Shown here one piece after another: positions 1,924 to 60,408 of a stretch of DNA of 64,000 bases (its first letter is position 1; the number at the start of each line of letters is the position of its first letter). The notes under the pieces are model-generated. The model was given only the letters and a program-made list of their open reading frames with translations, was not told the origin of the DNA and did no database searches. The position numbers were made by a program, and so were the translations under genes. The stretch is from Centroscyllium fabricii (lineage: Eukaryota): positions 176,080,001 through 176,144,000 of the forward strand of contig JBNRSN020000011.1 in NCBI GenBank assembly GCA_051313645.2. Reading direction: 5' to 3'.

Positions 1924-4803
1924 CTAGTACCCCATCCCCGCCTTTTCTCCATAACCTTTAATCCCTTTAGCTTGAAGAAATATATCCAATTCCCTGTTGA
2001 ATATGTTTAATGAACTGGCCTCCACCGCCCTCTGTGGCAGGGAATTCCACAGGCCCACCACTCTCTGAGTGAAGAAATTCTTCCTCATGTCTGTCCTAAA
2101 TGGTTTACCCCTTATCCTTAGACTGTGGCCCCTGGTTCTGGACTCCCCCGCCATTGGAAACATTCTCTCTGAATCTAACCTGTCCAGACCTTTCAGAATT
2201 TTATACGTCTCAATGAGATCGCCTCTCAATCTTCTAAACTCCAACGAGTACAAGCCCAGACTACATAATCTCTCCTCGTAGGTCATTCCTGGCATTCCAG
2301 GAATCAGCCTGGTGAATCTTCGCTGTACTCCTTCCATGGCAAGAACATCCTTCCTCAGGCGAGGCGACCAGAACTGTACACAACACTCAAGGTGTGGTCT
2401 CACCAGTGCCTTGTACAGCTGCAGTAAGGTATCCTTATTCCTATACTCGAACCCTCTTGATATGAAGGCCAACATACCATTTGCCTTCCTAACCGCCTGC
2501 TGCACCTGCGTGCTCGCCTTCAGCGACTGGTGCACAAGAACACCCAGGTCTCTCTGCACCTCCCCATCTCCCAATCTATTGCCATTTAAGTAGTAATCTA
2601 CCCTCCTGTTTTTGCCCCCAAAGTGGATAACCTCACATTTATCCACATTATAGTGCATCTGCCATCTATCTGCCCAGTCCCCCAACTTATCCAAATCTCC
2701 CTGTAACTTCCTGACACCCTCTTCAGAGCCTGCTCCCCCTCCTAGTTTGGTGTCATCCGCGAATTTGGAGATATTACATTCAATTCCCTGATCCAGATCA
2801 TTAATATATATTGTAAACAGCTGAGGTCCCAGGACAGACCCCTGCGGTACTCCACTAGTCACCGGCTGCCACTCAGAAAACGAGCCGTTAATTCCAACTC
2901 TCTGTTTTCTGTCTGCCAACCAGTTCCCTATCCACAACAAAACTTTGCCCCCAATCCCATGAGCCTTAATTTTACATGCTAATCTTTTATGTGGAACCTT
3001 ATCGAAGGCTTTCTGGAAGTCAAGGTACACCACATCTACTGGCTCTCCCCCATCTATTTTCCGAGTTACTTCCTCAAAGAATTCCAATAGATTAGTTAAA
3101 CACGATTTACCTTTTGTAAATCCATGTTGACTCTGTCCGATCTCATCCCTAATTGTCAAATGCTCCGAGATTACATCCTTGATAATGGACTCGAGCATTT
3201 TGCCCACTACTGATGTAAGGCTTACTGGTCTATAATTCCCTGCTTTCTCTCTGCCCCCCTTTTTAAATAGTGGGGTAACATTAGCCACCCTCCAATCCGT
3301 GGGTACTGATCCAGAGTCTATCGAGTTCTGGAAAATGATCCTTAAAGCACCCTCTATTTCCAGGGCTACCTCTTTAAGTACCCTAGGATGTAGATTATCA
3401 GGCCCTGGGGATTTGTCGGCCTTCAATCCCTTCAACTTCCCCAAAACCATCTCCCTAGAAATACTGATATCTGTTAGCTCCTCCCTTGCATTAGACCCTA
3501 TGTTCGCTGCTATCCCTGGGAGGTTGCTTGTGTCCTCCTTTGTGAAAACAGTACCAAAATATGAATTTAGTTGGTCTGCCATTTCTTTATTCCCCATTAT
3601 ATATTCCCCTGAATCGGACTGCAAGGGACCGACTTGGGATTTTACCAATCTTTTCCTCTTGATGTACCTATAAAAGCTTTTGCAGTCAGTTTTTATGTTT
3701 GCCGCCAGCTTACATTCGTAATCTATCTTTCCCCTCCTGATTAATCCCTTTGTCTTCCTTTGCTGTATCCTGAACTGCTCCCAATCTTGCGGCCTAGTAC
3801 TTTTTTTGGCCAATTGATATGCCCATTTTTTGGATTTAATGTTGTCCCTTATTTCCCTTGTTATCCACGGTTGAGTCACCTTTCTAGGTTTATTCTTATC
3901 CCAAACCGGTATGAACGAGTTCTGTATTTCTTCCATCCTATACTTGAATGCTTGCCATTGTCTATCCACATTCAATCCCCCCAGGAACACTGCCCAATCT
4001 ATCTTGCTTAATTCCCTTCTCATACCTTCATAATTCCCTTTATTTAAATTCAGGACCTTAGTCTCTGAGTTGATCTTTTCACTTTCCATCCCAACTGAGA
4101 ATTCGATCATATTATGATCGCTCCGACCCAAGGGGCCTCGTACAACTAGATTGCTAATTAGTCCCTTCTCATTGCACAATACCCAGTTTAAGATGGCCTG
4201 ATCCCGAGTTGGTTCCTCGACATATTGGTCCAGATACCCATCCCGTAGACATTCTAGGAATTCCTCCTCCTCAGTATTTTTACTAACTTGGCTAGTCCAA
4301 TCAATATGTAGATTAAAGTCGCCCATGACGACAGCTGTGCCCTTATTGCAAGCTTCTCTAATTTCCCTTTTTATGCCGTCCCCCACCTTCATATTACTAT
4401 TTGGAGGCCTGTATATAACTCCCACTAATGTTTTCCGCCCTTTACTATTTCTTAGTTCTACCCATATAGATTCCGTATCATCTGAGTTAATATCCTTCCT
4501 TTCAATTGCATTTATCCCCTCTTTCACCAGCAATGCCACCCCACCTCCCTTTCTTTTGTGCCGATCCTTTCTGAATGTTGTATACCCCGGGATATTGAGT
4601 TCCCAGTCTTGCCCCCCCTGCAGCCATGTTTCCGTAATTCCAATTAACTCATATTTGCTTACCTCTATTTCCACAGCTAGTTCATCCACCTTGTTCCTAA
4701 TGCTTCTTGCATTAAGATACAAAGCCTTTAGGCTTGTTTTGATCACACTATTATGAATTTGTTTGACCCTTTGTGTTTCTCTCCCTTGCTTATTGTTTCT
4801 CAC
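1924..4803 (-). CDS. CR1 ORF2: APE endonuclease plus reverse transcriptase, 959 aa, uninterrupted
   Basis: Motifs YLNARS, ITETW, GDFN and SDH (endonuclease); [30 protein letters not shown] and FADDTK (RT). Confidence 0.96.
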   Translation of the reverse strand: MRNNKQGRETQRVKQIHNSVIKTSLKALYLNARSIRNKVDELAVEIEVSKYELIGITETWLQGGQDWELNIPGYTTFRKDRHKRKGGGVALLVKEGINAIERKDINSDDTESIWVELRNSKGRKTLVGVIYRPPNSNMKVGDGIKREIREACNKGTAVVMGDFNLHIDWTSQVSKNTEEEEFLECLRDGYLDQYVEEPTRDQAILNWVLCNEKGLISNLVVRGPLGRSDHNMIEFSVGMESEKINSETKVLNLNKGNYEGMRRELSKIDWAVFLGGLNVDRQWQAFKYRMEEIQNSFIPVWDKNKPRKVTQPWITREIRDNIKSKKWAYQLAKKSTRPQDWEQFRIQQRKTKGLIRRGKIDYECKLAANIKTDCKSFYRYIKRKRLVKSQVGPLQSDSGEYIMGNKEMADQLNSYFGTVFTKEDTSNLPGIAANIGSNAREELTDISISREMVLGKLKGLKADKSPGPDNLHPRVLKEVALEIEGALRIIFQNSIDSGSVPTDWRVANVTPLFKKGGREKAGNYRPVSLTSVVGKMLESIIKDVISEHLTIRDEIGQSQHGFTKGKSCLTNLLEFFEEVTRKIDGGEPVDVVYLDFQKAFDKVPHKRLACKIKAHGIGGKVLLWIGNWLADRKQRVGINGSFSEWQPVTSGVPQGSVLGPQLFTIYINDLDQGIECNISKFADDTKLGGGAGSEEGVRKLQGDLDKLGDWADRWQMHYNVDKCEVIHFGGKNRRVDYYLNGNRLGDGEVQRDLGVLVHQSLKASTQVQQAVRKANGMLAFISRGFEYRNKDTLLQLYKALVRPHLECCVQFWSPRLRKDVLAMEGVQRRFTRLIPGMPGMTYEERLCSLGLYSLEFRRLRGDLIETYKILKGLDRLDSERMFPMAGESRTRGHSLRIRGKPFRTDMRKNFFTQRVVGLWNSLPQRAVEASSLNIFNRELDIFLQAKGIKGYGEKAGMGY

Positions 4804-4874
4804 CTTCCTACCATTTGTTTCTGGCTTCCTATGACCTCCCTCTTTTCCACTACCTATCCCAACCCCCTGCCAAG

Positions 4875-5823
4875 TTAGTTTAAACCCTCCCCAACCATGC
4901 TAGCAAACCTCCCCGCCAGGATATTGGTCCCCCTCCGGTTAAGGTGGAGACCGTCGTCCCCATACAAGTCCCACCTTTCCCAGAAACAGGGCCAGTTATC
5001 CAGGAAACTAAAGCCCTCCCTCCTGCACCAACTCTTGAGCCACGTATTAAGCTGCTCTATCCTTCTATTCCTATACTCACTAAATCGTGGCACAGGGAGT
5101 AATCCAGAGATTACAACCTTTGAGGTCCTGCACTTTAATTTTCTGCCTAGCTCCCTGAATTCTTGTTGCAGGACCTCATCCCTCTTTTTACCTATGTCGT
5201 TGATTCCTATGTGTACAACGACCTCTGACTGGTTTCCCTCCCTTTCCAGGATGCCCTGCAGCCGTTCCGTGACATCCTTGACCCTGGCACCAGGGAGGCA
5301 ACAGACCATCCTGGAGTCACGTCTACGGCCACGGAAACGCCTATCTGCTCCCCTTACAATAAAGTCCACTACCACTATTGCTCTCTCACGCCTTTTCCCC
5401 CCCAGCTGAACAGCAGAAGCAACCCCAGTGCCCGGAGGTTGGCCACTGTTGCATTCCCCTGGTAGGTCGTTCCCCCCAACAGTATCCAAAACGGCATACT
5501 TGTTCGTGAGGGGGATGGCCACAGGGGTTTCCTGCTCTACCTGCCTGGCCTTACTGTTCTTTCTGCTGGTCACCCAATTCCCTTCTGCCTGCACACCCTT
5601 AGCCTGCGGTGTGACCAGCTCACTGTATGAGTGATCCACGCACCTCAGTATCGCGAATGCTCCATAACCCATCCACCCTCAGTTCCAGTGCCGCAATGCG
5701 GTCAGTCAGTAACTGAAGGTGGACGCATTTCCCACACACATGGTCACCAGGGACTCCAGTGGTGACCCTGGCTTCCCACATGTGGCAGGAGGAGCAAAGC
5801 ACAGCACCGAGCTCCACTGACAT
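4875..5823 (-). pseudogene. CR1 ORF1 (zinc finger/coiled coil plus SGNH esterase-like domain), frameshifted
   Basis: ORF 5620-5823 has CSSC...CGKC and LTDRIAALELRV. ORF 4875-5672 has VVDFIVR (degenerate GDS), PGA, HIGINDI and DGLHLN. The frame changes near 5630-5670. Confidence 0.85.
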
Positions 5824-10117: not shown

Positions 10118-10690
10118 AGTGCTAACCACTATGCCACCGTGCCGCCCCCCTCCCTAAACCTCTCCACCTCTCAGACTCTCCTTAAAGCATATTGGGACTT
10201 GCACTTTATAGATCACCTTTAAATGTAACTTGTTGTTGCTACTGTGCTGGTAACCCGCAGCCCTTCAAAATACAATAGAAGATTTAAATCCCCACCTTCA
10301 TAATGTTGTTCATTCTGATAAATGGACAACGTGTTTGCCAGAAAATGTTTAATGTTGGATGAGTTATTTTGCAGACCAATTTTATAATATTTGTATCTGA
10401 ACCTGTTTCATCATTCTCATTCAGCATTAAATCAAATTTGTCCGACTGCTTTATAGAAAATAATGATCTTTTGGTAGGGAGTGAGAGGTTTTGTTACAAA
10501 TAGTAGGCCATGCAATGAAAACTTCAACACACAGAATGTTTCAGCTCTGAATTATACATCTAATGAGTTTGTTTTATATATTGACGGTGCACACCAGCTG
10601 TTGAGGGTGTGCAATCAATACAAAGCAAGTCAACTCTGCACATCCAGTGTTTTTCAAGCATTGACTTTTAATGGGTGTCATGGCTATTGT

Positions 10691-10960
10691 AAGAAGTCAC
10701 ACACCACCAGATTATAGTCCAACAGTTTTATTTTAAATCACAAGCTTTCGGAGCTTTTGCCCCTTCGTCAGGTGAAAGAGAGAGACTGACTTAAAGAACG
10801 CACATATGTGCGTTCTTTAAGTCAGTCTCTCTCTTTCACCTGATGAAGGAGCAGCGCTCCGAAAGCTTGTGATTTCAAATAAAACTGTTGGACTATAATC
10901 TGGTGTTGTGACTTCTTGCATTTGTCCACCCCAGTCCAACACCGGCACCTCCACATTATT
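10691..10960. mobile_element. Penelope-like inverted terminal cassette, family 1
   Basis: Long palindrome centred near 10805, a hammerhead motif on each strand, and flanking duplication GCTATTGTA. Confidence 0.8.
10836..10872 (+). ncRNA. Minimal type I hammerhead ribozyme motif (mirror copy at 10738-10774 on the minus strand)
   Basis: UCAC-CUGAUGA-A-GGAGC(AGC)GCUCC-GAAA-GCUU-GUGA: conserved core, stem II, palindromic stem III and stem I UCAC/GUGA. Confidence 0.75.
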
Positions 10961-11914: not shown

Positions 11915-12205
11915 ATTGCATATTTATCTGGAATCAATCAGACATTTTCCACTTTTTAAAAATTTTGGTTTCCCTTCACTGCCTTTGTCCCAAAGGCCCT
12001 AGCTCATACTGAGGTACAATTCTAATGATGCTAGGTGCACCCAAACAACTCTTCCAAGTGGCCATTTTCCATGGGTCAGTGAGTATTGAACGCGACTATT
12101 TGAACGCGTCACAGGCCAGCCTCAACCTGTCATTCAACTACCCTGCAGCGGGTAGTCAAAACTGCCCAACGAATCACCGGCACCCAGCTACCATCAATTG
12201 AATGC

Positions 12206-12460
12206 AAGAAGTCACACAACACCAGGTTATAGTCCAACAGTTTTATTTGAAATCACAAGCTTTCGGAGCACTGCTCCTTCGTCAGGTGGAAGAGAAATTG
12301 ATCCAAAGAAAGCACATGGATCAACTTCTCTTCCACCTGAGGAAGGAGCAGCGCTCCGAAAGCTTGTGATTTAAAATAAAACTGTTGGGCTATAACCTGG
12401 TGTTGTGTGACTTCTTGCATTTGTCCACCCCAGTCAAACACCGGCACCTCCACATCATCA
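12206..12460. mobile_element. Penelope-like inverted cassette, family 1, with two hammerhead motifs
   Basis: Same arms as 10691-10960, with cores CUGACGA (minus) and CUGAGGA (plus) and flanking duplication TTGAATGCA. Confidence 0.8.
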
Positions 12461-17490: not shown

Positions 17491-17831
17491 AACTCCATTG
17501 TTTTTGTTATAATTATGGTACCTCTAGAATGAAACTGTGCCTTGAGCTGGTCCGTCTTGGCTGCACCTGGAAGAAAAGCTGAAGCTGCCTTAACGCTTTA
17601 TATCCGCCGTGGCTATACTGCAGACCCGAACTGTCGTATTATTCAAACTTGAGTGTGGGCAAAAACATCAAGAGAGTATATCTTTTGTGTGATTTATTTC
17701 AGCAACCAGAACACACGTTAACACAGTACTTTTAGTTTCAGTTTCCCTCCAGTTCCCTGTCACCCGGAACCTCAAGTAATGCACTTTGACCCTCCCATAA
17801 TGCCCCTTGCCATTATGCTATCAGATTACAC

Positions 17832-18300
17832 TGTGATAAACCCTTTTATCATATGTATATAGTTAACTGACATGTATCAATGTAATTACTGGGACATGCC
17901 CAGGTTAGCTCCGCCCACGACTCCTCCCTCCCTGGAGGAGGTATATAAGTGGCTACCACCCATCCCCCAGCCATACCTGGGGACAGTCGACTAGCTGGTG
18001 CATGTTCCAGTTAGTAGTCAATAAAAGCCTAATTGTTTCTTCATCTAACTACTTGTCCTCGAGGTCATTATTTCAGGTCACAATTTTATTGACTACTAAC
18101 TGGAACATGCACCAACTAGTCGACTGTCCCCAGGTATGGATGGGTGGTAGCCACTTATATACCTCCTCCAGGGAGGGAGGAGTCGTGGGCGGAGCTAACC
18201 TGGGCATGTCCCAGTAATCACATTACAGTACAGGTATTACATTGATACATAACGATACATGTCAGTTAACTATATACATATGATAAAAGGGTTTATCACA
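17832..18300. mobile_element. Palindromic LTR-derived insertion (LTR 17832-18082 plus inverted copy 18084-18300)
   Basis: TGTGATAAACCC...GGGTTTATCACA ends, TSD TACAC (17827-17831 and 18301-18305), TATATAA at about 17942 and AATAAA at 18020. Confidence 0.9.
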
Positions 18301-19674
18301 TACACCACACGAACGATCCCGGGCGTCCCCGAACGATGAGCGCATGTACAGACCATTCAAAATGGCGGGCGGCCTTTTGCGGCGGCCATTTTGAATGGTC
18401 TGCGCATGCGCTCGCTGAAGCTTCAATCGTTTTCAAAAATTCAGCACGGTCCTGGTCCCGACCGTGCCGGTTTAACGGTGCTCAACCTGTAATACATGTG
18501 AAAACTGGGAGCACTGATCTCAAACCACACTCTCTGCTGTCATCTTTGCCTCGGCGGGCAGAAGGTTGTGGGTTCAAGACCCACTCCAGAAACTTGAGCA
18601 CACAATCCAGGCCGACACACTCCGTACCGTACTGAGGGAGTGCTGCAATGCTGGAGGTGCCGTCTTTCGGCGGAGAGACAAACGCAGGAGTAGGCCATTC
18701 GGCCTTTCGAGCCTGCTCCGCCATTTTTGATGAGATTATGGCTGATCATCCAAGCCCAGTACCCCACTCCTACCCTCTCCCCATATGCCCCGACACCCCC
18801 AACTCCAAGAACTATATCTCACACACATACTCATGGGCAATTTTTAGTATCTCCAATTCACCTAACCTGCATGTCTTTGGGTGGTGGGAGGAAACCGGAG
18901 TACCCGGAGGAAACCCACATGAACACGGGGAGAACATGCAAACTCCACGCAGAGAGGTCCCGGGCCAAGCCGGATTCGAACCCAGGAGCTCCTTATTGTG
19001 AGGCAGCAGTGCTAACCACTGCGCCACCGTGTCGTCCATTTAAAACAAGGCCTCGTCTGCCCCCTCAGCTTGACCTTAAAAAATCCCATGGCGCTGTTTG
19101 AAGATGAGGTAGGTGGGTGGGGGGGGGGGGTGCGGAGTTCTACCTGGTGTCCTGGTCAATATGTATCCCTCAACCAACATCACAAACCGATTAACTGGTC
19201 ACTTATCTCATGTTTGTTCTTTGTGGAATTGTGCTGTGGGCAAATTCCTTGGCGCATTTACTTGCATTACAACAGTGACTGCAGTTTAAAAAGTAGGTAA
19301 TTGGCTGTGACGCATTTGAGATGCCCTGAGGATGATGAAGATGCTATATAAATGCAAATCCTTTCTTTACTTGGGCTTCCCAACAGCTCGTTCAGTGAAA
19401 TAACTGAGCCGTGCAGACCAGATGCCAGGTTTGATTTCCAGTCTGTGCTCAGTTATCTAGCATAGGGATTATAATTGCCTTCAGTGCCCCTAGAGTGCAG
19501 TAGCGGGCATGGGATCAACCCAGGGTCCTGATTGCTAACCAGTGACCCTTGCAAGAAACACACATATGGACTTTGGCCGAGGACGGGACTGAGCTTAGTT
19601 ATGATGCGCTCCGTGATTTAAAAAAAAAAGGAGTCTGCTGTCTGTCACCTTTTTTCAGGCTCCCAGATGAACCA

Positions 19675-19955: not shown

Positions 19956-21134
19956 TGTGAAGGTACTCCTACAGTGCTGTTAGGGAGGGAGTTCCAGGAT
20001 TTTGACCCAGCGACCATGAAGAAACGGCCGATATACTTCCCAAGTCGGGATGGTGTGCGACTGGGAGGTGGCGGTGCTGTTCTCATGTACCTGCTGCCCT
20101 GGTCCTTCTAGATGGTGGTGGTCGTGGGTTGGGGTGACACATGATCTGGGGTGCAAAGACCGCATCCTCGGAGCTGCTGCCCGTCTGTTGAACCGTTACG
20201 CCGAGGCTCCACGTGCCTGTTCCAACGGTTCAGGTAAGTGTTAAAGATTACACCGCCCCATTTGAAGAGGGCGAGTAAACGGAGCTCGAGGGACGAGGCG
20301 ATGTTTGGCGAACGCCAAGCCTAACCTAAATGTTGGCACCAAATGCCGGGGGGACATGAGGGTCCAATTCTGTGCCCCTCTACTCCCGACGGAAAGTGGC
20401 GCTCGCAGACAGCGCTCCAGGGCAGATTGCGAGCTGCTACCCCATGATTTTCTGTGCAATCTGGGTGCCCCCTCTTGCAACAATACGCTGCTCTCTGTCG
20501 GGACCACGGAATTGGGACTACAATTCAAATGTTCCCATGCTCCTTTGTGCCATTGATGATGTGGAGGGCAAACATTTGTAAATAAAACACAAATTATACA
20601 TTTTATTGGCACTTGATCATTTTGTTTGGTTTAGCAGTTTTTATTTAAGAAAGCACTTGCATTTTTAATAGATCCTTTCACAAGCTTGGACCGTCCCTCC
20701 GTGCTTTACAGCCAATTAAGTATTTTTGAACTGTTGTGACGTAGGGAATTGTGGCAGCCAAGTTGTGCACAGTAAGCTCCCACCAACGGCAATGAAATGT
20801 CGCCAGATCATCTGTTTTTAGTGATGTTGCCTAGTGTGGTAACCATATTGTGTATACATCACCACTGTAATATTGTCGCCAATATTGGCCTTGTATGATA
20901 CACCGCTTTGTAACACTGTCGTGGAGCCAGGTCAGCCACACCTCTAACTCCTCCCCCAGGTGAGGCCCTTTATAGGTGAGGACTGACCGGGCTCCCTCAT
21001 TCTGTTCTGGATGTTCGATTGGAGGGTAGCTCCAAAGTAAGTTAATAAAAGCCTATAGTTAAGGTCACTACTCGTTTAGTCTTTTATTAAGACAAATTGA
21101 CGATCTGTCAATTTTATTAACTTAAAAATTTGAA

Positions 21135-24095
21135 ATGGAGAGTGGTGCGGTAAAGCCAGAAAAGCTGGACACCAGTCCACAGGACCCAGCCGCCGCCACC
21201 ACGTTCGAACACTGGTTTGGTCTCCTGGAGGCCTATATGGACGCCGCCAAGGCTACAACCGACGGGAACAAATTGCAGGTTCTCCGGTCTAGGATCTCCA
21301 GCCGAGTATTCTCCCTCATCAGAGATGCCAAAACCTACCCAGCGGCAGTGGAAAAACTGCAAAAATGCTACGAGCACCCGGTCCACTCAGTCTCTGCCAG
21401 ACATGTGCTCGCGAACAGACCGCAACTACCGGGTGAGACTAACGAACAATTCGAACAAGCACTCCAAGCCCTGGTACGGGTCTGTGGCTGCCAAGCACGG
21501 ACAGCAGAGGAAGAGGCGAATCTCCTCGTCCGGGACGCGTATGCAACAGGCCTGAGGTGTGTGAAAGCCCGCCAGCGGCTGCTCGAAAAGGACTCTTTGA
21601 CCCTAGAGGAGGCGGTCTCCATATCTAACTCCGTAGAAGGGGCACGCAACAAGCTGCAGGCGTACAGCGGCACAAACCCGCACGCCTACGACATGTGGGC
21701 CGCGCCACAACGGGCCCAGGCCTGGACAGCACCACAACGGGTCGAGACCCCCACGATGGATGCGACAGCAGCAAAGTACAAACGGTGTTATTTCTGCGGG
21801 CAAGGACTGCATCCACGAGCGAGATGCCCAGCGAGGACCGCGACCTGTGAGAGGTGCTCCAAAAAGGGACACTACGCGAAGGCCTGCAGATCAGCACCAA
21901 CAGCGCCCAACTCCAGGTACAGCAGCGCAGCCTGTGAAAGCTCCGCCAGGACTCAGGTAAGCTGCAATAGCAGCGCGATCCAGCGATGGTCCGGGGGTAG
22001 AAGAAAAGCGCCCCCATCTCCCACCCTGATGCGGCAAAGGCCGGCTGCACCCACGGCACGCCAAGCTCAGCCACGGCCGGTCCAGCGCGGCCCGCTGCGT
22101 GCGAACCACAGGCACCGCCAACCCAATCACCGCGGCTCGCTGCGTGCAAACCACGGGCACCGCCAACCCAGTCACCGCGGCCCGCTGCGTGCGAACCACG
22201 GGCGCCGCCAGCGCGCTCACAGCGGTCAGCCGCGTGCGAACCACGGGCGCCGCCATCTTGTCTCCAGCGGCCCACCATGTGCGACCCCTCGGCGCCGCCA
22301 TTTTGTCTCCAGTGCCCCGCCATGTGCGAGCCAGGGGCGCCGCCATTTTGTGTACAGCCCCAACAAGCAGGGGGCCCCCACACACACAGGCACACTTCGG
22401 CCTCAGCCACACAACCTTTCAAATTCGATCATGCCGATTAAATTTAACGGCCATATTACCAATTGTCTGTTCGACACTGGAAGCACGGAGAGTTTTGTAC
22501 ACCCCGATACAGTGCAGCGCTGCGGACTGCAGATCCTGCCCACGCGCTACCAAGTCTCCCTTGCTTCACAGTCCCACACCGCGGACGTCACCGGCTACTG
22601 CTCCGTCACGCTCACAGTCAAGGGTTGTGTGTACCGTAATTTCAAATTGTACACCCTCCAGCAGTTGTGTGCCCCAGCCTTACTAGGTCTGGATTTCCAG
22701 TGCCACCTCAAGAGCGTGACAATGGAGTTCGGCGGGACCTTGCCCCCCCTCACCGTCAGTAGCCGGGACAGTCCCTTCCCAAAGCGGAGCCCGGCCTGCG
22801 GCCTCTCCACCCTGAAAATCGACCCCCCCTCATTGTTCGCCAACCTTGACCCTAACTGCAAGCCAATTGCTATTAAGAGTCGGCGGTACAGTGTGGGGGA
22901 TCGCACGTTTATCAGGTCGGAGGTCAGGCGTATGCTAAAGGAGGGGATAATTGAAGCCAGCACCAGCCCCTGGCGGGCCCAGGTGGGAGTGGTGAAGTCT
23001 GGCGAGAAACAGCGGCTGGTTATCGATTACAGCCAGACTATCAACCGCTACACCGGGCTCGACGCCTACCCCCTCCCCCGCATCTCGGAAATGGTTAACC
23101 AGATCGCCCAGTATAAGGTGTTCTCCACGATCGACCTTAAGTCGGCGTATCACCAACTCCCGATCCGGAAAGGCGACCGCCCGTACACCGCCTTCGAGGT
23201 GAACGGTCGGCTCTACCACTTCCTCCGGGTCCCCTTCGGCGTGACCAACGGAGTGTCAGTGTTCCAACGGGAGATGGACCGCATGGTTGACCAGAATGAG
23301 TTGCGGGCCACCTTCCCCTACCTGGACAACGTGACCATCTGCGGCCATGACCAGCAGGACCACGATGCCAACCTGACCAAATTCCTTGATACGGCGGATA
23401 AGCTGGACCTTACGTATAACAAAGACAAATGTGTCTTTAATACAGACCGGCTTGCCATCCTCGGATACGTGGTGGAGAACGGGGTCCTCGGCCCCGACCC
23501 ACAGCGTATGCGCCCCCTACAAGAACTGCCCCTACCTCACAACCCCAAAGCCTTGAGGAGATGCCTAGGATTTTTCTCCTATTATGCACAATGGGTCCCA
23601 CAGTTCGCGGACAAGGCTAGACCACTCCTCAAGGCTGCCGTCTTCCCCCTCTCGGTAGAAGCCCAAACGGCATTCGCCCGGATAAAGAAAGATATCCTCA
23701 AGGCGACCATGCACGCCGTTGATGAATCCATTCCCTTCCAGGTGGAGAGCGACGCTTCGGACTTTGCACTTGCTGCCACCCTGAATCAGGCAGGCAGGCC
23801 CGTAGCGTTTTTCTCCCGCACCCTACAGGGACCCGAAACTCACCACTCCGCAGTGGAAAAGGAGGCCCAGGCCATCGTGGAGGCCGTGCGCTACTGGCGT
23901 CATTACCTGGCCGGTAAGCGTTTTACCCTTCTCACCGACCAGCGGTCGGTGGTATTTATGTTTAATAATAAACAACGGGGTAAAATCAAGAATGATAAGA
24001 TCCTGCGGTGGCGGATCGAACTCTCGACTTACGAGTACGACATTCTTTACCGACCAGGTAAACTCAATGAACCCCCGGACGCACTGTCCAGGTGA
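21135..24095 (+). CDS. Gypsy A gag-protease-RT-RNase H ORF, 986 aa, ending at a premature stop before integrase
   Basis: Two zinc knuckles (CYFCG..H...C and CERCSKKGHYAKAC), LFDTGS protease, YLDN RT motif, and ESDAS...VEKEA RNase H. The frame continues after TGA into HDRLCHPGV. Confidence 0.88.
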   Translation: MESGAVKPEKLDTSPQDPAAATTFEHWFGLLEAYMDAAKATTDGNKLQVLRSRISSRVFSLIRDAKTYPAAVEKLQKCYEHPVHSVSARHVLANRPQLPGETNEQFEQALQALVRVCGCQARTAEEEANLLVRDAYATGLRCVKARQRLLEKDSLTLEEAVSISNSVEGARNKLQAYSGTNPHAYDMWAAPQRAQAWTAPQRVETPTMDATAAKYKRCYFCGQGLHPRARCPARTATCERCSKKGHYAKACRSAPTAPNSRYSSAACESSARTQVSCNSSAIQRWSGGRRKAPPSPTLMRQRPAAPTARQAQPRPVQRGPLRANHRHRQPNHRGSLRANHGHRQPSHRGPLRANHGRRQRAHSGQPRANHGRRHLVSSGPPCATPRRRHFVSSAPPCASQGRRHFVYSPNKQGAPTHTGTLRPQPHNLSNSIMPIKFNGHITNCLFDTGSTESFVHPDTVQRCGLQILPTRYQVSLASQSHTADVTGYCSVTLTVKGCVYRNFKLYTLQQLCAPALLGLDFQCHLKSVTMEFGGTLPPLTVSSRDSPFPKRSPACGLSTLKIDPPSLFANLDPNCKPIAIKSRRYSVGDRTFIRSEVRRMLKEGIIEASTSPWRAQVGVVKSGEKQRLVIDYSQTINRYTGLDAYPLPRISEMVNQIAQYKVFSTIDLKSAYHQLPIRKGDRPYTAFEVNGRLYHFLRVPFGVTNGVSVFQREMDRMVDQNELRATFPYLDNVTICGHDQQDHDANLTKFLDTADKLDLTYNKDKCVFNTDRLAILGYVVENGVLGPDPQRMRPLQELPLPHNPKALRRCLGFFSYYAQWVPQFADKARPLLKAAVFPLSVEAQTAFARIKKDILKATMHAVDESIPFQVESDASDFALAATLNQAGRPVAFFSRTLQGPETHHSAVEKEAQAIVEAVRYWRHYLAGKRFTLLTDQRSVVFMFNNKQRGKIKNDKILRWRIELSTYEYDILYRPGKLNEPPDALSR
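22085..22350 (+). repeat. About six degenerate 45-bp tandem repeats in the gag-pol linker
   Basis: Unit CGCGGCCCGCTGCGTGCGAACCACGGGCACCGCCAACCCAGTCAC, translated as RGPLRANHGHRQPSH-like repeats. Confidence 0.85.
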
Positions 24096-24585
24096 AAGTG
24101 CGCCAGTGCCCAGCTAGACCGGCTGAAGGACCTCCACGACCGCCTTTGCCACCCGGGTGTCACCAGACTCGCCCACTTCATTAGATCCCGTAGCCTCCCC
24201 TACTCCATCACGGAGATCAAGGCTATGACCAGAGAGTGCCCTGTTTGTGCCGAGTGCAAACCCCAATTTTTCCGGCCAGACACTGTGATAATACAGAACA
24301 GCTTCTATCTGCTTACATCACTTCCGGGGACCTATGAACTTTTGTATGATGTCACTTCCTGTAACTAGCCCAGTATAAATACTGGGCTACTCACTATGAT
24401 TTAGTAAGAGGCATAGTGAAGACCTCTTTTGTATGTAGCACCTTTATAAGTTGATTAAAGCTTACCTTAAGTTCCTATCGTGTAAGTTTCATTCTTACAA
24501 CAATTTAATCAACTTTGCAAAACCTCTCACTCAACTCGAACTTTTGGACAAAACTCGGAGCTGAAGATCCAGGGAAGCCACCAGC

Positions 24586-25386
24586 ATGGAGAACCTCCTT
24601 AGACCGACTCATCTCGATTTGGACCCAAACACCCCAGCAGCTGATAAAGTCTGGAAACACTGGTATCACGCTTTTGAAAATGTTCTTGTATATTGTGAAG
24701 CTGATGATGACATGAAGCTCAAGTTACTAATCAACTATGTCACCCCAAGGGTATATGAATGTGTGGATCATTGGACTAATTTTGATGAGGCAATTCGGAC
24801 ACTTCAGAGACTATATACTAAAACACCTAATGAGGTCTATGCTAGACATCTACTAGCTAAAGCTCGACAAGGGCCAGAGGTATCAATTGATAAATTCCTT
24901 CATGAGCTTCGCAGGCTTAGCATGAATTGTAACTTTCAGGCGGCTTCAGCTGAGCTGTACCGTGAAGAGATGATTCGTGATGCCTTCATCTGCGGGCTTG
25001 CCTCCCCATTTATTTGCCAGCGTCTACTTGAAAGTAAGACACTGGAACTACAAAAAGCTTATGACTTGGCTTGTTCTCTGGATTTGGCAAAAAGAAATGC
25101 AGACCTTTATGAAGTACCTAGACCTCGAACTGCTGCTTTAACCACAACCAGACAATTTAAGCGGCCACAGGTGAACTCTATTAGGGAGGACTTTTATCCT
25201 GATGATCAATCTGAGGACTTCACTGATGAAGAAGATAATGACCCCACTCTGGCAGCCTCTTGGCGATCTAAGAAATGCTTCTTTTGTGGTGATGAGTTTC
25301 ATCCTAGGAAATTCTGCCCTGCTCGCAATGCGATTTGCAGTCATTGTGACAAAAAGGGTCATTTTGTGAAGGTTTGCCTATCATGA
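24586..25386 (+). CDS. Gypsy B gag, 266 aa
   Basis: ARHLL...IRDAFICGL...QRLLE motifs and knuckles CFFCG..H...C and CSHCDKKGHFVKVC. Confidence 0.88.
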   Translation: MENLLRPTHLDLDPNTPAADKVWKHWYHAFENVLVYCEADDDMKLKLLINYVTPRVYECVDHWTNFDEAIRTLQRLYTKTPNEVYARHLLAKARQGPEVSIDKFLHELRRLSMNCNFQAASAELYREEMIRDAFICGLASPFICQRLLESKTLELQKAYDLACSLDLAKRNADLYEVPRPRTAALTTTRQFKRPQVNSIREDFYPDDQSEDFTDEEDNDPTLAASWRSKKCFFCGDEFHPRKFCPARNAICSHCDKKGHFVKVCLS

Positions 25387-25468
25387 GCCTCTACGAGGGC
25401 TTATCAAGCTCAGTCCTATCGAACTGCCCCAATTAGGGCCTATCAAGATATTCCGGCTAAATCTTATC

Positions 25469-28400
25469 ATGCTTCCTCTCGGGGGTTTTTCCCGAAGAAG
25501 CACACCTAGAGTTTCTGCCACTCTTTGTGCAACAACATCAATTACAGCTGCTTGTCCTCCAAATCTATTCTATGCTGCTGTGAAGGCATCAATTGCTGGA
25601 CATACTTTAGATGCCTTAATTGACTCTGGCAGCTCTGAGAGTTTTATTAGGGAACAGGTTGTTACAAAGTTAAAGCTACATGTTTTCCCATCCAACCAGG
25701 CAATTGCGATGGCTCAGTCGTCGCTCAACACCAGAACCTCCGGCTTTTGTATTGTTGAAATATCACTTAATGGCCACAGGTATCCCTCTACCCGGCTTTC
25801 GGTGCTCAAGGACCTGTGTAGTGACCTTCTCTTAGGACTGGACTTCCAAAAGCAGCATAAGACGCTCACTATTGAGTTCGGCGGATCCAAACCCGGACTC
25901 ACTGTTTCTAATATCCTGCCTCAATATCCATTCTGTGCATTGTCAGCGGCTTCGCTGGATGAACCCTCACTATTTACCAGTATTCCTCCTCGATGCAAGC
26001 CAATTATAACAAAATCACGACGTTTCACTCAGGAAGACCAGTCCTTTATTGCGACTGAAATTTCTCGGCTTTTGGCAGAGGATATCATCGAGCCTTGTTC
26101 ATCGCCATGGCGGGCCCAAGTTGTTATTGTTAAAAATCCTCTGCAGCCTCGCAAGAAACGGCTGTGCATTGACTATTCACAGACCATCAATCAATATACG
26201 GACTTGGACGCCTACCCATTGCCGCGCATAGATGATATGGTTAATAAATTGGCTGAGTACACGGTGTTCTCAACGTATGATCTGAAAAGCGCCTATCATC
26301 AAGTACCTTTGAAACTCTCAGACAAGCAGTATACGGCCTTTGAGGCCAATGGACGGCTGTACCAGTTCCGTCGCCTCCCGTTTGGGGTCACTAATGGAGT
26401 GGCTGTCTTCCAGCGGGCAATGGATGACTTCGTCAAGCAGGAAAACTTAAAGGATACTTTTCCTTATCTAGATAATATTACTGTTGCAGGTCGTGATCAA
26501 CAGGAACACGACGCCAATCTCCAACGATTTCAGGATGCACTCCAGCACCGTAATTTAACATTGAATGCGTCTAAATCTATTGAGTCGCAACCAACCATCA
26601 ACATCCTTGGCTATTGTGTGGGCAATGGCATAATTAAACCGGACCCTGAAAGGCTTCGTCCACTCCAAGAGCTCCCGCCACCGAAGAATCCAGCCTCCTT
26701 GCGTCGGGCCCTCGGCCTCTTTGCGTGTTATGCTAAATGGATTCCTAACTTCTCGGACAGAATCCAACCCCTACTGAAGGCCGGAACATTTCCATTAGAC
26801 ACAGCGGCTGTTACAGCCTTTAATCTTCTAAAACAACTGTTGGAGAAAGCGGCCCTTCACTCTATTGATGAGAATCTGCCCTTCGTCGTTGAATGTGATG
26901 CCTCAGAAGTGGCGATCTCGGCTACTCTGAATCAGGAAGGTCGTCCGGTGGCATTTTTATCCAGGACCTTTCAAGGTGCCGAAATACATTATCCTCCAGT
27001 GGAGAAAGAAGCTACAGCCATTATCGAGGCAGTACGGAAATGGAACCATTTCCTAGCTCGGCAACACTTTACGTTAATAACAGACCAGCGATCGGTCGCT
27101 TTTATGCTTGATAATCGGAAACGAACCAAAATTAAAAATAATAAGATCCAGCTTTGGCGGATGGAGTTGGCCTCTTTCGGTTACACCATCCACTACCGAC
27201 CTGGCAAGGACAATGTGGCGCCGGATACCCTCACACGAGCATTCTGCTCCGCTGTGTCACCCTCTACTCTCGTGGACGCCCATGATGGATTGTGTCATCC
27301 TGGCGTTACCCGCATGTTACACTTCGTGCGATCACGGAATCTCCCTTTTTCTACCGGGGATGTCAAGAAGATGTGCTCGGACTGCAGAGTCTGTGCAGAA
27401 TTAAAGCCTCAGTTTTTCCGCCCCTCGGGTGGTACGCTCATACATGCGACCCAGCCGATGCAACGGCTTAGCATTGATTTTAAGGGCCCATTGCCCTCTT
27501 CAACTCGAAACACTTATTTACTGACCATGGTCGACGAATATTCCCGTTTTCCGTTTGCCTTTCCCTGCCCCAATATGCTGTCATCCACCGTTATCAGCTG
27601 CCTTGAACAGGTATTTTCTTTCTGTGGCATGCCGTCTTACGTTCACTCGGATCGGGGTCCTTCCTTCATGTCAGGAGAACTCTAGGCTTATCTCTCGGAT
27701 CGGGGCGTTGCTACCAGTAAAACGACGCCTTATTATCCTGTCGGGAATGGGCAAATCGAACGGTATAATGGCATCATTTGGAATTCTGTACGTCTAGCTT
27801 TGAAATCTCGGGGCTTGCCCATCCAGCAATGGGAAGCAGTACTCCCAGATGCATTGCATTCTACACGGTCCCTTCTTTCGACCGCCACAAATATGACTCC
27901 CCATGAACGATTCTTTCAATTCCAGCGTCGCTCATCCTCCGGGATCTCTCTTCCATCGTGGCTGACTACACCAGGACCGGTGTTACTCCGGAGACATGTC
28001 CGGGCATCCAAGAATGACCCCCTTGTAGACGAGGTGGAACTGACTGATATCAACCCGACCTATGCATATATCCGATATCCTGACGGTCGGGAATCCACTG
28101 TGTCGTTACGGGATCTGGCTCCCTGCCCGCCGAAACTTACTGGGACACCTGGGGATGGTGATTTGCCAGGCGCATCTCTGTGCTCGCCAGGTACCCCTCA
28201 CCAGGATCTGGATCTGACGCCAGCTGGCACTTCACTCCAGGATACAAACCGGAGGCAGACCGACTATGAGCCCGTTGGGGCTCGCACACGCAGCCACGAT
28301 CCACCACGTTCTACACGCCCAGAAACAAATCTACCACAGACCTACTCAACACTTGTTCGGGCTCAAACGCAAAGCCATGCTCTCCCAGACCCTTCACAGG

Positions 28401-28570
28401 GCGGGCCAGACCACACGGATTCTGATCAATGGCCCACGGCACGTAAACGGGCTAGAGACCCTCTATCACCATGTGAACCCAAACGGGTGCGACTCTCCCT
28501 CATTCGACGGATACGTAATGAAGGGAGGATTCCGGCCTCCTACTCTTTTGGGAGGGAGGCGGCCTCCTAA
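25469..28570 (+). pseudogene. Gypsy B pol (PR-RT-RH-IN) with an in-frame TAG at 27683-27685
   Basis: LIDSGS, YLDN, ECDAS, HDGLCHPG...C..C, SIDFKG and HSDRG motifs. ORF 27800-28570 is in the same frame as 25469-27685. Confidence 0.9.
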
Positions 28571-28812
28571 TCTTTTGGGAGGGAAGAATGTGATAATACA
28601 GAACAGCTTCTATCTGCTTACATCACTTCCGGGGACCTATGAACTTTTGTATGATGTCACTTCCTGTAACTAGCCCAGTATAAATACTGGGATACTCACT
28701 ATGATTTAGTAAGAGGCATAGTGAAGACCTCTTTTGTATGTAGCACCTTTATAAGTTGATTAAAGCTTACCTTAAGTTCCTATCGTGTAAGTTTCATTCT
28801 TACAACAGACAC

Positions 28813-29822
28813 GGTGCACCTCATTAAGGCCACCCGCCCCTTTGAACGTCTAAGCGTGGACTTCAAAGGCCCCCTCCCCACCACCGACCGCAACTCATAC
28901 TTCCTCATGGTCGTAGATGAGTTCTCCCGCTTCCCCTTCGCCTTCCCCAGCGCAGATATGACGAGCGCAACGGTGATAAAACACTTCACCACGCTGTTCG
29001 CCATTTTCGGTCTCCCCAGCTACATCCATAGCGACCGGGGGTCATCGTTCATGAGCGATGAACTGCGTCAGTTTCTGCTCCAGAAAGGGGTTGCCACGAG
29101 CAGAACGACCAGTTATAACCCCCGGGGGAACGGCCAGGGAGAATGGGATCATCTGGAAGGCGGTCACCCTGGCTCTGAAGTCCAGAGGCCTTCCAGTGTC
29201 CCATTGGCAGGCAGTCCTCCCAGATGCGCTGCATTCAATACACTCTCTACTGTGTACGGCCACTAACGCCACCCCTCATGACATGATTTTTTCCTTCCCC
29301 AGGAAGTCGACTTCGGGGACAGCTCTTCCTCCATGGCTCACGACACCGGGGCCGGTCTTCCTTAGAAGACACGTCCGTGGCCACAAGCCCGACCCCCTGG
29401 TGGACAAGGTGCAGCTCCTGCATGCGAATCCGCAATATTACTTCATGCAGTTCCCGGACGGGCGCGAGTACACCGTCTCCATCAGGGTCCTGGCGCCCAC
29501 AGGAAGCACCGCAGCAGAGCCCCTGGTCGGGCAGCAGCCCGCCCAGCCACAGTATCTGGAACACCCCCTGCATCTACAGTGGCCTCCGAGGTATCCAGAC
29601 CCCCAGCCTTGGCCAGCCCAAGACCACCATTCCGATGGCTCGGACCAATTGAGACCACCAGCATCCGAAACCTCGGCACCAGAGCCACTGTCATCACCAC
29701 CGGACTCGAGCAGTACGGAACACGGCGAACTTTTACCGGAGCCCCGGCGGTCCTCCAGGCTGACACGACCGCCGGACAAGCTCATAATGAACTGCTCTGT
29801 CCATTCACCCCGCCGGACCTAA
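28813..29822 (+). pseudogene. Gypsy A integrase core and C-terminus, frameshifted near 29140
   Basis: RPFERLSVDFKGPLP, IHSDRG and YNPRGNGQ, continuing in another frame as NGIIWKAV...GPVFLRRH. Confidence 0.88.
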
Positions 29823-30163
29823 AATTTTCAAGAAGGGGTGAATGTGGTAACCATATTGTCTATACGTCACCACTGTAATATTGTCGCCAATATTGGCCTT
29901 GTATGATACATCGCTTTGTAACACTGTCGTGGAGCCAGGTCAGCTACACCTCTAACTCCTCCCCCAGCTGAGGCCCTTTATAGCTGAGGACTGACCGGGC
30001 TCCCTCATTCTGTTCTGGATGTTCGATCGGAGGGTAGCTCCAAAGTAAGTTAATAAAAGCCTATAGTTAAGGTCACTACTCGTTTAGTCTTTTATTAAGA
30101 CAAATTGACGATACGTCACCTAGGACATCAGGAGACCTCCTCCTGCTCTTCCAATAATGCCTG

Positions 30164-41881: not shown

Positions 41882-41983
41882 TCGCGTATGGTAATGCCCA
41901 GGAATCGGAATAAGGGCGTTGCTTGGTCAGTGAGCCTTGCCGAGTTCTTGCAGGAATAAAGACAAGTGTATCACCCTGTAACA

Positions 41984-42312
41984 AATGCAAGAAGCCACAC
42001 AACACCAGGTTATAGTCCAACAGTTTTATTTGAAATCACAAGCTTTCGGAGCGCTGCTCCTTCCTCAGGTGAAAGAGAAATTCATTTAAAGGCAGCATAT
42101 ATACAAGGGAGAGAACAATCTAATAATACAAGGGAGAGATTAGACTGCTCTCTCCCTTGTATATATGCTGTCTTTAAATGAACTTCTCTTTCGCCTGAGG
42201 AAGGAGCAGCGCTCCGAAAGCTTGCGATTTCAAATAAAACTGTTGGACTATAACCTGGTGTTGTGTGACTTCTTGCATTTGTCCACCCCAGTCCAACACC
42301 GGCACCTCCACA
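41984..42312. mobile_element. Penelope-like inverted cassette, family 1
   Basis: Inverted arms, two CUGAGGA hammerhead motifs, and 14-bp flanking duplication ATCACCCTGTAACA. Confidence 0.82.
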
Positions 42313-57955: not shown

Positions 57956-59956
57956 CCACAATTGGGTGGTGGGGCATTATGGCTGCATCCGATTTTATTC
58001 CAGTTTGCTTGACAAATTCTGCAACTTGGGCCCTAAGCGTTAATTTATTCTGAAATATAATTCAGAGTTTCACTAAAGAAGCTCTGACGTTACCATAGTA
58101 ATTAATTTTGCATTTAAGCATGAATCTAATTTACATTTAAACATAAGTTTAAATCTGCTAAACTGGAAAATTTAATTTATGACAATTATAATTTGGATAA
58201 ATAACATAATGCTTACCCTTGCAAGGGCTTTTAGAAAAAAATAATATTGAGAATTATTTTATTACATTCACTGCACACAAAGTTAATGTGTTCTGCTTGA
58301 GTGGAAGACAAATAAGAGTTTTGAAAAATAGGCTAATGATTAGTGCTGCTGCATTATTTATTCAAAGCTGTTCTTCATCGAAGACTTCGAAATAAATCAT
58401 TCAAAATAATTAGAAATGTAAGTCTAGCAGTTCTTGGGTACTATCCCAGCTAACATGGCTCTATTTTGGGCGCTCGCGATGACTCTGTTGGTGAAGTCGG
58501 TCTGCAACTGACCTCTGAAGGCACAGGAGGTCACCGCAAGAAAGACTTGCATTTAGACAGCGCCTTTCACGACCTCCAGACGTCCCAGAGCGCTTTACAG
58601 CCAACTAAGTACTTTTTGAAATCTAGTCACTGTTGTAATGTAGGATACGCGGCAGCCAATTGTGCACAGCAAGCTCCCACAAACAGCAATGTGATGATGC
58701 CCAGATCATCTGTTTCTGTTATGTCGATTTTGAAGGACAAATACTGGCTAGGACACCGGGGATAGTCATATAGTCTATGGGTGCGATATTTGCAGTGTAG
58801 TGCCAGCCCGTTAGCGCGCTGCACAATTAGCGCTAGCGCTCGCGCCCAACGCGAAATTCAGTCGAGCGCTACGTTGGGGGCTAACTGGTAGCGCCCCAAC
58901 AAATTTTGCGCCCAGCTGCCCGACGTGAATGTCATTATCGCATCGCACAGCGCCTGGGAGGTACCCGCAACTGAAATTGGGCAGCGTCCGCTGAATTATC
59001 GCTGGGCGCTGCCCGCGCCAGCTTATTCGAGCTGTAACAGCAGCAGGGCAGCGCTGCTTAAAGGGGAGTGCGGCAGTCGGCCATTTTTATTGCTGGCCGA
59101 CTGCCAACACCTTCCCCCGCTGCTCCCCCGGCGGGGTCAGGCCTCCAGTAACTGAGCCCCACACTTCCCTCCAGTGCCGGGCTCCTTCTGGCGATTCTCG
59201 TCCCGCGGCGGCGGCTGCAGCCGTGCTAGGCCCCTCCCCTTTGATCGGGGAGGACGCCCCGCAGTAACGCGGGCCGCCACTACCCGCTCCTTTTCGCAGC
59301 GACCTGCCCACGCCCCGATATTCAGCCTCATCACGCCAAGAGCGAGGGCGGGCTCTGTTTTAACGCCCGCCCTCCTACTATGGGCGATGCAGGCCAATTT
59401 TGCCGCTCGCTGGCGCTAAAAATAGCGCTGCGCCGAGGTCGGTGCCACGAAGCATCCGAAAGACGGTACCTCCGACAGTGCAGCACTCCCTCAGCACTGG
59501 CACTGGTGTGTCAGCCTAGATATTGTTTTTGTCTCCAGTCTCTGGAGTGGGACTTGAACCCATAACACTGGTGTAATTTGCCCAAACCGTCCTGGCTTAT
59601 CCGGTTGGGATAGTAGTAAGGACAATTGGCCGAGGTGTGTCTGGTTTTGGGGAAGGGAAAATTTTAGCCAGGGCTCTCTGTTACCCAGTGACCCCTGCCC
59701 CCCCCCCCTTTGCTGGAGAATGGATGTTGGATGAGAACAAGGTCAGGCTTGGTAGTGATGCCCTTTGTGGTTGATTAGCACGTTGCTCTCCAGACACTCT
59801 GCATGATGCGCGGTGGTTGCAGAGGGCACCCACGGAACTGAACTGAACCACAGCTGGAGCCACTGGTAACAAACCAGGCAGGAAAACAAGGAAGCATGTT
59901 GGGAGTAGTTTAGGCCCAGACAAGAAAACCAAAATAAACTGCGGCTAATAAAATGA

Positions 59957-60197
59957 GAAGTCACACAACACCAGGTTATAGTCCAACAGTTTTATTTTAA
60001 ATCACAAGCTTTCGGAGCATCTGCCCCTTCGTCAGGTGAAGTGTCAAGATTCATTTAAACATAGCACCTATATAGAGAGGGAGAACAATGTGGTCTCTCC
60101 AGCTGTTTCACATCACACCTCAGCAGAGAGACATCAAAGCAATCAAAGGTGTCCCTCAGCTGAGGTGTGATGTGAAACAGCTGGAGAGACCACATTG

Positions 60198-60234
<37 letters not shown>

Positions 60235-60408
60235 ATGTATGTATGTATATATCTGTGCTATGTTTAAATGAATCTCGACACTTCACCTGACGAAGGGGCA
60301 GACGCTCCGAAAGCTTGTGATTTCAAATAAAACTGTTGGACTATAACCTGGTGTTGTGTGACTTCTTACAATTGTCCACCCCAGTCCAACACCGGCACCT
60401 CCCCATCA
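59957..60408. mobile_element. Penelope-like inverted cassette, family 1, longest arms
   Basis: Arms of roughly 170-210 bp around a spacer at about 60125-60158, two CUGACGA hammerheads, and flanking duplication TAATAAAATGAG. Confidence 0.82.

Follow-up and report, generated by a model that had tools for sequence, protein, structure and literature searches.

To our knowledge, experimental proof of self-priming exists for Tf1 only; elsewhere it has been inferred from complementarity. In Tf1 the mechanism is established, with the first 11 bases given as the primer (PMC7175516), and self-priming is described as a shared trait of the Tf1/sushi group, whose elements bear a chromodomain (PMC10085805, PMC4600332), and as predicted for the plant Tcn1 and TAR elements (PMC6317226). 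General background is provided by PMC3601003, PMC5006619 and PMC5341516.

Here we analyzed a stretch of 64,000 nucleotides from Centroscyllium fabricii (the window), which contains a 469-base LTR palindrome with two U3 ends. Like Tf1/sushi elements (Tf1, Tf2, Tj1), the parent lineage has a PBS directly after the 5' LTR that is complementary to its own R, and no tRNA PBS. A further likeness lies in the PBS copies of Tf1 cDNA, about half of which is reported to keep them as single-stranded tails (PMC11042837). Tf1/sushi elements carry a chromodomain, whereas the present lineage does not, and their primer lies at the very 5' end of the RNA, a position against which the TATA spacing and the fossil end points appear to argue here. 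In Ty1 and Ty3, the first plus strand is described as copying the primer beyond the match to the template PBS; in Ty3 the PPT primes again, displacing this first plus strand, and dead-end plus strands accumulate (PMC5371799). The resulting tail is a tRNA copy without a partner in the element, whereas the tail proposed here is complementary to R and could therefore take part in synthesis again and yield a palindrome that can be inserted. Retroviral minus-strand strong-stop DNA also self-primes through terminal complementarity, a fold-back that is suppressed by nucleocapsid and is described as a dead end in vitro; it involves the minus strand, however, and not an inserted product with two U3 ends. 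With MITEs, the palindrome shares its short, non-coding sequence, terminal inverted repeats and target-site duplication, but such palindromes are made singly from an LTR element, without transposase ends and with no sign of amplification.

Structure and host site of the palindrome

An earlier note on this DNA had described an LTR followed by one A and by the reverse complement of the same LTR, flanked by TACAC on both sides, and this layout agrees with the sequence base by base. The left part (17832-18082, forward strand) is one LTR (U3-R-U5) of Gypsy family C, with TG at 17832, CA at 18082, a TATA box (TATATAAG, 17942-17949), assigned by motif and presumably functional, and AATAAAA at 18020-18026. 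It was called an ordinary LTR, which holds for its termini and signals but not for its length, 29 nt short of the 280–281 nt typical of the family. An initiator-like CCATACC follows at 17971-17977, and its A at 17973 (TATA+32) is the predicted cap site, based on the motif and on the pile-up of end points described below. The single A at 18083 precedes TTTTATTGACTAC (18084-18096), the exact reverse complement of the PBS-complementary self-primer segment GTAGTCAATAAAA at 18014-18026, which includes the poly(A) signal; together, 18083-18096 match the sequence that follows the LTR in the parents. The reverse-complement LTR then continues to 18300. Its first part (18097-18137, minus strand) would correspond to the 5' tail predicted for the primer (LTR 171-211), as judged from the initiator and the end points, and the rest (18138-18300, minus strand) is U3 down to its first base.

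The arms measure 195 and 217 nt and enclose an asymmetric spacer of 57 nt, in which the remainder of R plus U5 (18027-18082) is unpaired. Relative to each other, the left arm has a gap of 29 nt, which can be taken for one deletion or two at short repeats, the right arm has a gap of 7 nt, and one or two bases are substituted. Both gaps are missing from all 61 other LTR segments compared. The 7-nt gap, if aligned as LTR 164-170, adjoins the predicted cap site at LTR 171; it is possibly a template-switch scar, and, with 0 of 61 other segments carrying it, its position is possibly chance. Folded as DNA, the palindrome reaches −225.4 kcal/mol (z −36; equally good shuffles, 0 of 100). Rfam and ARAGORN searches of the window returned no match.

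The insertion lies 4 nt from the end of a solo LTR belonging to another family (17632-18309, no strand assigned; segments 17632-17831 and 18301-18309), which has its own duplication, CGAAC. TACAC stands at 17827-17831 and again at 18301-18305 (both forward strand). Since 13 of the 14 other copies of the host repeat carry it only once, as ...CAGATTACAC/CACA, while the 14th continues differently, the flanking pair is a true target-site duplication. The TG/CA termini, the family-typical 5-bp duplication and the single-copy empty site mark an integrase product, and both of its ends are U3, in line with the suggestion that integrase had inserted two U3 ends. The left 92 nt of the host solo LTR are 98–100% identical to the 40 scored copies, so the palindrome is young, though already with deletions.

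In the four sequencing runs examined, the read contigs are too short to cross the whole palindrome, which would also be seen with an assembly fold-back artefact, and three runs contain a joint that skips 17627-18309 and may derive from paralogous repeats. Given the asymmetric 57-nt spacer, the different deletions in the two arms, the genuine duplication and the recurrence of the junction at separate loci of three families, such an artefact is nevertheless scarcely credible.

Parent families with a self-complementary PBS

Searching the genome of origin with the palindrome LTR yielded 1489 candidates, of which 40 were scored and 30 loci were read. One is the palindrome itself, 16 are 5' LTRs followed by ATTTTATTGACTAC, ten are 3' LTRs preceded by a PPT, and three are solo LTRs. 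Full family C copies have direct LTRs, a PPT and 5-bp duplications, and their frames follow the order Gag-PR-RT-RH-IN with a zinc knuckle, as in a Ty3/Gypsy parent. The best solved relative is Ty3 Gag-Pol (E = 5e-56). Named relatives among 120 matches are shark and ray records (~75–84% identity) and, more distantly, sea anemone, nematodes and an insect (~60–64%). Features of gag may point to a Mag-like affinity. The family C polyprotein, all of the relatives that were rescanned (9 of 9) and the domain lists of the 120 matches show no chromodomain, and the lineage is therefore not filed under Tf1/sushi.

None of the three families has a TGG-type tRNA PBS. Instead, the PBS pairs with the element's own LTR over 14, 13 and 12 nt in families C, A and B, respectively; the sequences differ, and the pairing covers the poly(A) signal in each. 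In family C, this self-complementary PBS follows the 5' LTR at 16 of 16 other loci and in 3737 exact junctions, as had been predicted for the parents. The PBS substitute that had been pointed out in Gypsy A (20835-30118) and Gypsy B (24284-28807), CA + A + anti-poly(A) signal, is likewise present after their 5' LTRs. Gypsy B (duplication GACAC) is nested inside Gypsy A (duplication CCTAG). The predicted leader fold combines a primer/PBS helix with an inner R/U5 helix, with a whole-fold z of only −1.42.

As a separate observation, the RT active-site motif reads YLDN rather than YxDD in all three families (window 21126-24095 and 25370-27685). Among 121 proteins checked, 88 have YxDN, 24 have YxDD and nine match neither, indicating an abundant lineage with Asn at the final position of the motif.

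Recurrence, extension end points and the copied primer

Junctions at which the PBS continues into antisense LTR recur in every family. By exact-match counts, 21 extended junctions face 3737 normal ones in family C, 16 face 3944 in family A and 9 face 1753 in family B, a share of 0.4–0.6% per family and ~0.5% overall; reversed-pattern controls gave 0. When a free gap of 0–30 nt was allowed, A + PBS stood at the turn in 56 of 60 junctions, so that the fold-back points are not random. At the other four (L140, L141, L151, L162), a U5 end is joined to an inverted, more diverged LTR without a PBS.

Eight U3/U3 palindromes were found, each with its own 5-bp duplication: L034 (CCCCA), L035 (TACAC; the palindrome at 17832-18300), L042 (AGACT), L043 (CACGG), L159 (CTGAC), L065 (AACTT), L066 (ACCGC) and L067 (ATGCT). 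The expectation of further palindromes with the same junction and different duplications is thus borne out. Because the same junction recurs in three families, the eight palindromes have separate duplications and the turns lie at the PBS, the 469-base palindrome is a real, recurrent by-product of reverse transcription and not an artefact. The four non-PBS joins, and the PBS/R inverted repeat present in every resident 5' LTR, would suit host replication or repair, either as an inverted duplication at a resident element via its natural PBS/R hairpin or as a cDNA end entering an inverted LTR. Such a process must delete the remainder of the element yet keep a 5-bp duplication against the inverted U3 end, at eight independent sites, and we consider it very improbable.

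Five further family C cases (L037, L038, L050, L167 and L170) extend to or near the U3 start and have lost most of the left arm, a pattern expected if long inverted repeats decay. Among the family C palindromes, the four that were compared have differing backgrounds and lie 0–5 events from the nearest other segment, mostly an ordinary LTR copy, and no sign of shared descent or of copying as a unit was seen among them. This lends no support to the proposal that the palindromes are a route to MITE-like sequences in the sense of a re-mobilised family. The minus-strand counterpart of the junction, inverted R directly on the PBS plus internal sequence, gave 0 matches, though predicted.

Vertebrate transcription starts lie ~30 nt from the TATA box. 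The pairing segment begins 68–75 nt past it in all three families and is therefore too distant for a vertebrate start site. Within 95 nt after the TATA box of family C, the only match to YYANWYY is CCATACC, with its A at TATA+32 (LTR 171); family B has no strict initiator match. The prediction that short extensions stop at the initiator A was recorded before more loci were gathered. After L149 and L179 had been dropped as duplicates of L148 and L178, and L032 for want of the anchor, 59 family C extension ends remained. Relative to the initiator A, 17 of them fall at −1 to +2, 9 at +3 to +8, 11 at +9 to +15 and 1 at +17, while 9 lie at −2 to −159 and 12 at the U3 start; ends shorter than ~+20 are concealed by the search anchor. 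The ends thus build a wall: 17 of 59 lie inside 4 nt at the predicted cap site, ~41 nt upstream of the segment that pairs with the PBS, and 13 of these 17 are from loci gathered after the prediction. Between −2 and −26 only L045 ends, and by eye it turns at 0; a few ends (L180, L185, L062) lie inside U3. Null tests (0 and 4 of 200,000) were run on the eight ends from which the idea had come, and we do not treat them as independent. L053 was left out because it may be a simple deletion in a solo LTR. Many of the extended elements return to the internal region through short homology of a few bases and are otherwise whole, with duplications (L036, L039, L040, L046, L123 and L031). In family A, the four informative ends, at LTR 159-165, 169, 187 and 101, appear to match the predicted position, 165, loosely. 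The wall is sharp only in family C, and family B gave no short extension.

In its simplest reading, the wall arises where the plus strand copied an RNA primer to its 5' end; the copied primer is therefore likely a ~54-nt 5' fragment, LTR 171-224, paired only at its last 13–14 nt. The earlier idea of the PBS as the fold-back pairing is correct as to the turn, but the copied primer probably extended well beyond the PBS. Pausing at this site, or a maximum length of stable arms, could also account for a wall at LTR 171. Several strong-stop-like relics end at the end of the primer segment; these and the plus-strand copies of the primer in the fossils bear only indirectly on the release of the primer by RNase H cleavage and its use for minus-strand synthesis.

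In three loci (L138, L172 and L045), extensions ending at LTR 171 continue with ATC, for which slippage plus an untemplated or cap-templated addition at the template end is a speculative explanation. In L148, an extension that ends at the predicted cap site is joined directly to the U5 end of another LTR, and in L161 to a U3 start resembling family A; both look as if cDNA ends had been joined end to end.

Origin of the two-U3-end product and related relics

We propose, with a probability of roughly 0.6, that the palindrome is an integrase-inserted by-product of self-primed reverse transcription in which a primer-copy tail was transferred to the 3' R and the PPT primed a second time. The core of this scheme, namely primer copying, R pairing, U3 extension and insertion by two U3 ends, we hold with high confidence. 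The family PBS pairs with 13–14 nt of the element's own LTR. The primer would be a capped 5' fragment of ~54 nt, from TATA+32 to the end of AATAAAA, with only its 3' end paired. Plus-strand strong-stop DNA would copy this primer to the cap and thereby gain a 3' tail complementary to R, a better handle for strand transfer than the minus strand has in its short remaining R homology. Now and then, the tail would anneal to the 3' R of genomic RNA and be elongated across U3 and the PPT in the manner of a second minus strand. The other strand would be made by second priming at the PPT, and the product would be a linear duplex, U3-R-U5-PBS-antiU3, that ends in U3 on both sides. What overhangs beyond one CA would then be removed, on the assumption that integrase can remove a long 3' overhang. 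Insertion itself is marked by the TG/CA ends and the 5-bp duplication, and the long inverted repeat would afterwards decay by deletion.

In the self-priming origin put forward in the earlier note, plus-strand strong-stop DNA folds back through the PBS/R pairing and is extended through U3, and integrase inserts the product by two U3 ends. Spelled out further, the displaced strand would copy its own U3, after which two hairpins, or two reciprocally primed strands, would anneal into a bubble-centred duplex whose two U3 ends are used by integrase. Such a snap-back agrees with the 12 of 59 family C extensions that end at the U3 start, with the ready folding expected of a 54-nt tail and with the displacement of the first plus strand described for Ty3 (PMC5371799), and it leaves no long overhang to be removed. 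Exact U3 ends are, however, also expected from transfer to the 3' R if integrase cuts at the CA of U3, and a single hairpin offers only one integrase end, so that a second molecule is required. Two family B relics, L070 and L073 (duplications GTTAT and CTGTG), extend 115 and 29 nt past U3, through the PPT into internal sequence, and only then switch back to the normal strand. The strong-stop strand begins at U3 and is therefore excluded as their template; the 3' end of genomic RNA or a full plus strand can serve. L049 similarly copies 15 nt of template upstream of U3. While the core of the earlier proposal is supported, its intramolecular step is not established, given the one-ended hairpin and the copying beyond U3 in L070 and L073.

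Arm comparisons give mixed indications. Sites that are polymorphic in the family distinguish the two arms of L056 (G in 5 of 29 others) and of L057 (C in 6 of 27), which lends weak support to an RNA template, as these are single-base indels in runs and may be recurrent. In L034, by contrast, the arms are identical, and in L043 they share two variants found in 0 of 61 other segments. Such likeness fits snap-back, but two RNAs transcribed from a single source locus, or arm conversion, would produce it as well. At 17832-18300, no feature separates RNA- from DNA-templated copying of U3.

In four mirror-strand elements (L061, L058, L051 and L144; duplications CCCTG in L061 and CAGAT in L058), U3-primer sequence is joined to minus-strand sequence and then to the internal region. 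Second PPT priming would make such elements, and spacer inversion after insertion could do so as well. The same products, as well as the beyond-PPT products, are expected if the minus strand was primed by an RNA containing U3 and this long primer was then just copied into the plus strand; the RNA would be either the primer segment as present in the 3' R or a transcript that begins upstream, within U3 or the flank. The primer segment lies in R at both RNA ends, and the few ends inside U3 (noted above) would find an explanation. This version requires cleavage of the 3' R copy and leaves the wall at the initiator unexplained, and no extension was seen to enter the upstream flank of a donor; we regard it as improbable. 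Based on L070 and L073, the mirror-strand elements, the polymorphic arms and the one-ended hairpin, transfer to the 3' R with second PPT priming is favoured over both alternatives, and snap-back, the less improbable of the two, is unlikely. The core of the earlier proposal is common to all three.

Relics of LTR size with one U5 and one U3 end occur in family B (L068, L069, L071, L072, L074 and L075), family A (L052, L055, L057 and L059) and family C (L184). They contain an inverted U5 insert after the primer segment, and nearly all have 5-bp duplications. In the six from family B, out of nine matches, this insert is the same, 16 nt long and immediately behind the segment; a script found exact duplications around five of them, and the sixth is consistent with one if its end is taken as 2 nt short. 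None of the LTR-sized relics was found within a full-length element, compared with three solos among 29 ordinary LTRs in family C; a DNA search with the family B LTR, in which common words were skipped, gave no match. This suggests, short of proof, that LTR-sized cDNA, perhaps in the form of strong-stop duplexes, was inserted directly.

Our literature search, covering sources other than the primary Tf1 papers and Repbase, returned no account of U3/U3 palindromes as genomic insertions, of a self-primer with a 5' tail or of a Mag-like clade that self-primes. We tentatively suggest, at somewhat less than even odds, that a widespread non-chromovirus Gypsy lineage self-primes with a capped, 3'-paired fragment of ~54 nt, that the primer copy acts as a second transfer handle and that LTR-sized products, both U3/U3 palindromes and solo-like elements with U5 and U3 ends, are inserted directly. 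If so, intermediates of reverse transcription and cap sites can be read from genome assemblies, and some solo LTRs were never full-length, with possible consequences for the use of solo-LTR counts to estimate recombination and DNA loss. The fossils themselves are in-genome evidence that an R-derived primer is copied in an animal element; they predict the 5' end of this primer to the base and extend the mechanism to a lineage that lacks a chromodomain. They also reveal a steady source of long inverted repeats, at ~0.5% of junctions with a smaller share of full palindromes, which presumably decay by deletion and could be mis-annotated as MITEs.

Other arrangements were seen alongside these relics. 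In L006 (1381-1501), an inverted R-U5 is joined to an LTR start at an antisense purine run that resembles a PPT end. A separate palindromic repeat family with CTGA...GAAA motifs occurs at 10688-10920, 12201-12421, 41981-42282 and 59956-60366 of the window; by inspection, it is not derived from Gypsy LTRs. These repeats gave no Rfam match at the gathering score, and we presume a resemblance to hammerhead-bearing Penelope-like repeats. The window further contains, at 1924-4899 on the minus strand, a 991-aa frame of LINE-type endonuclease/RT.
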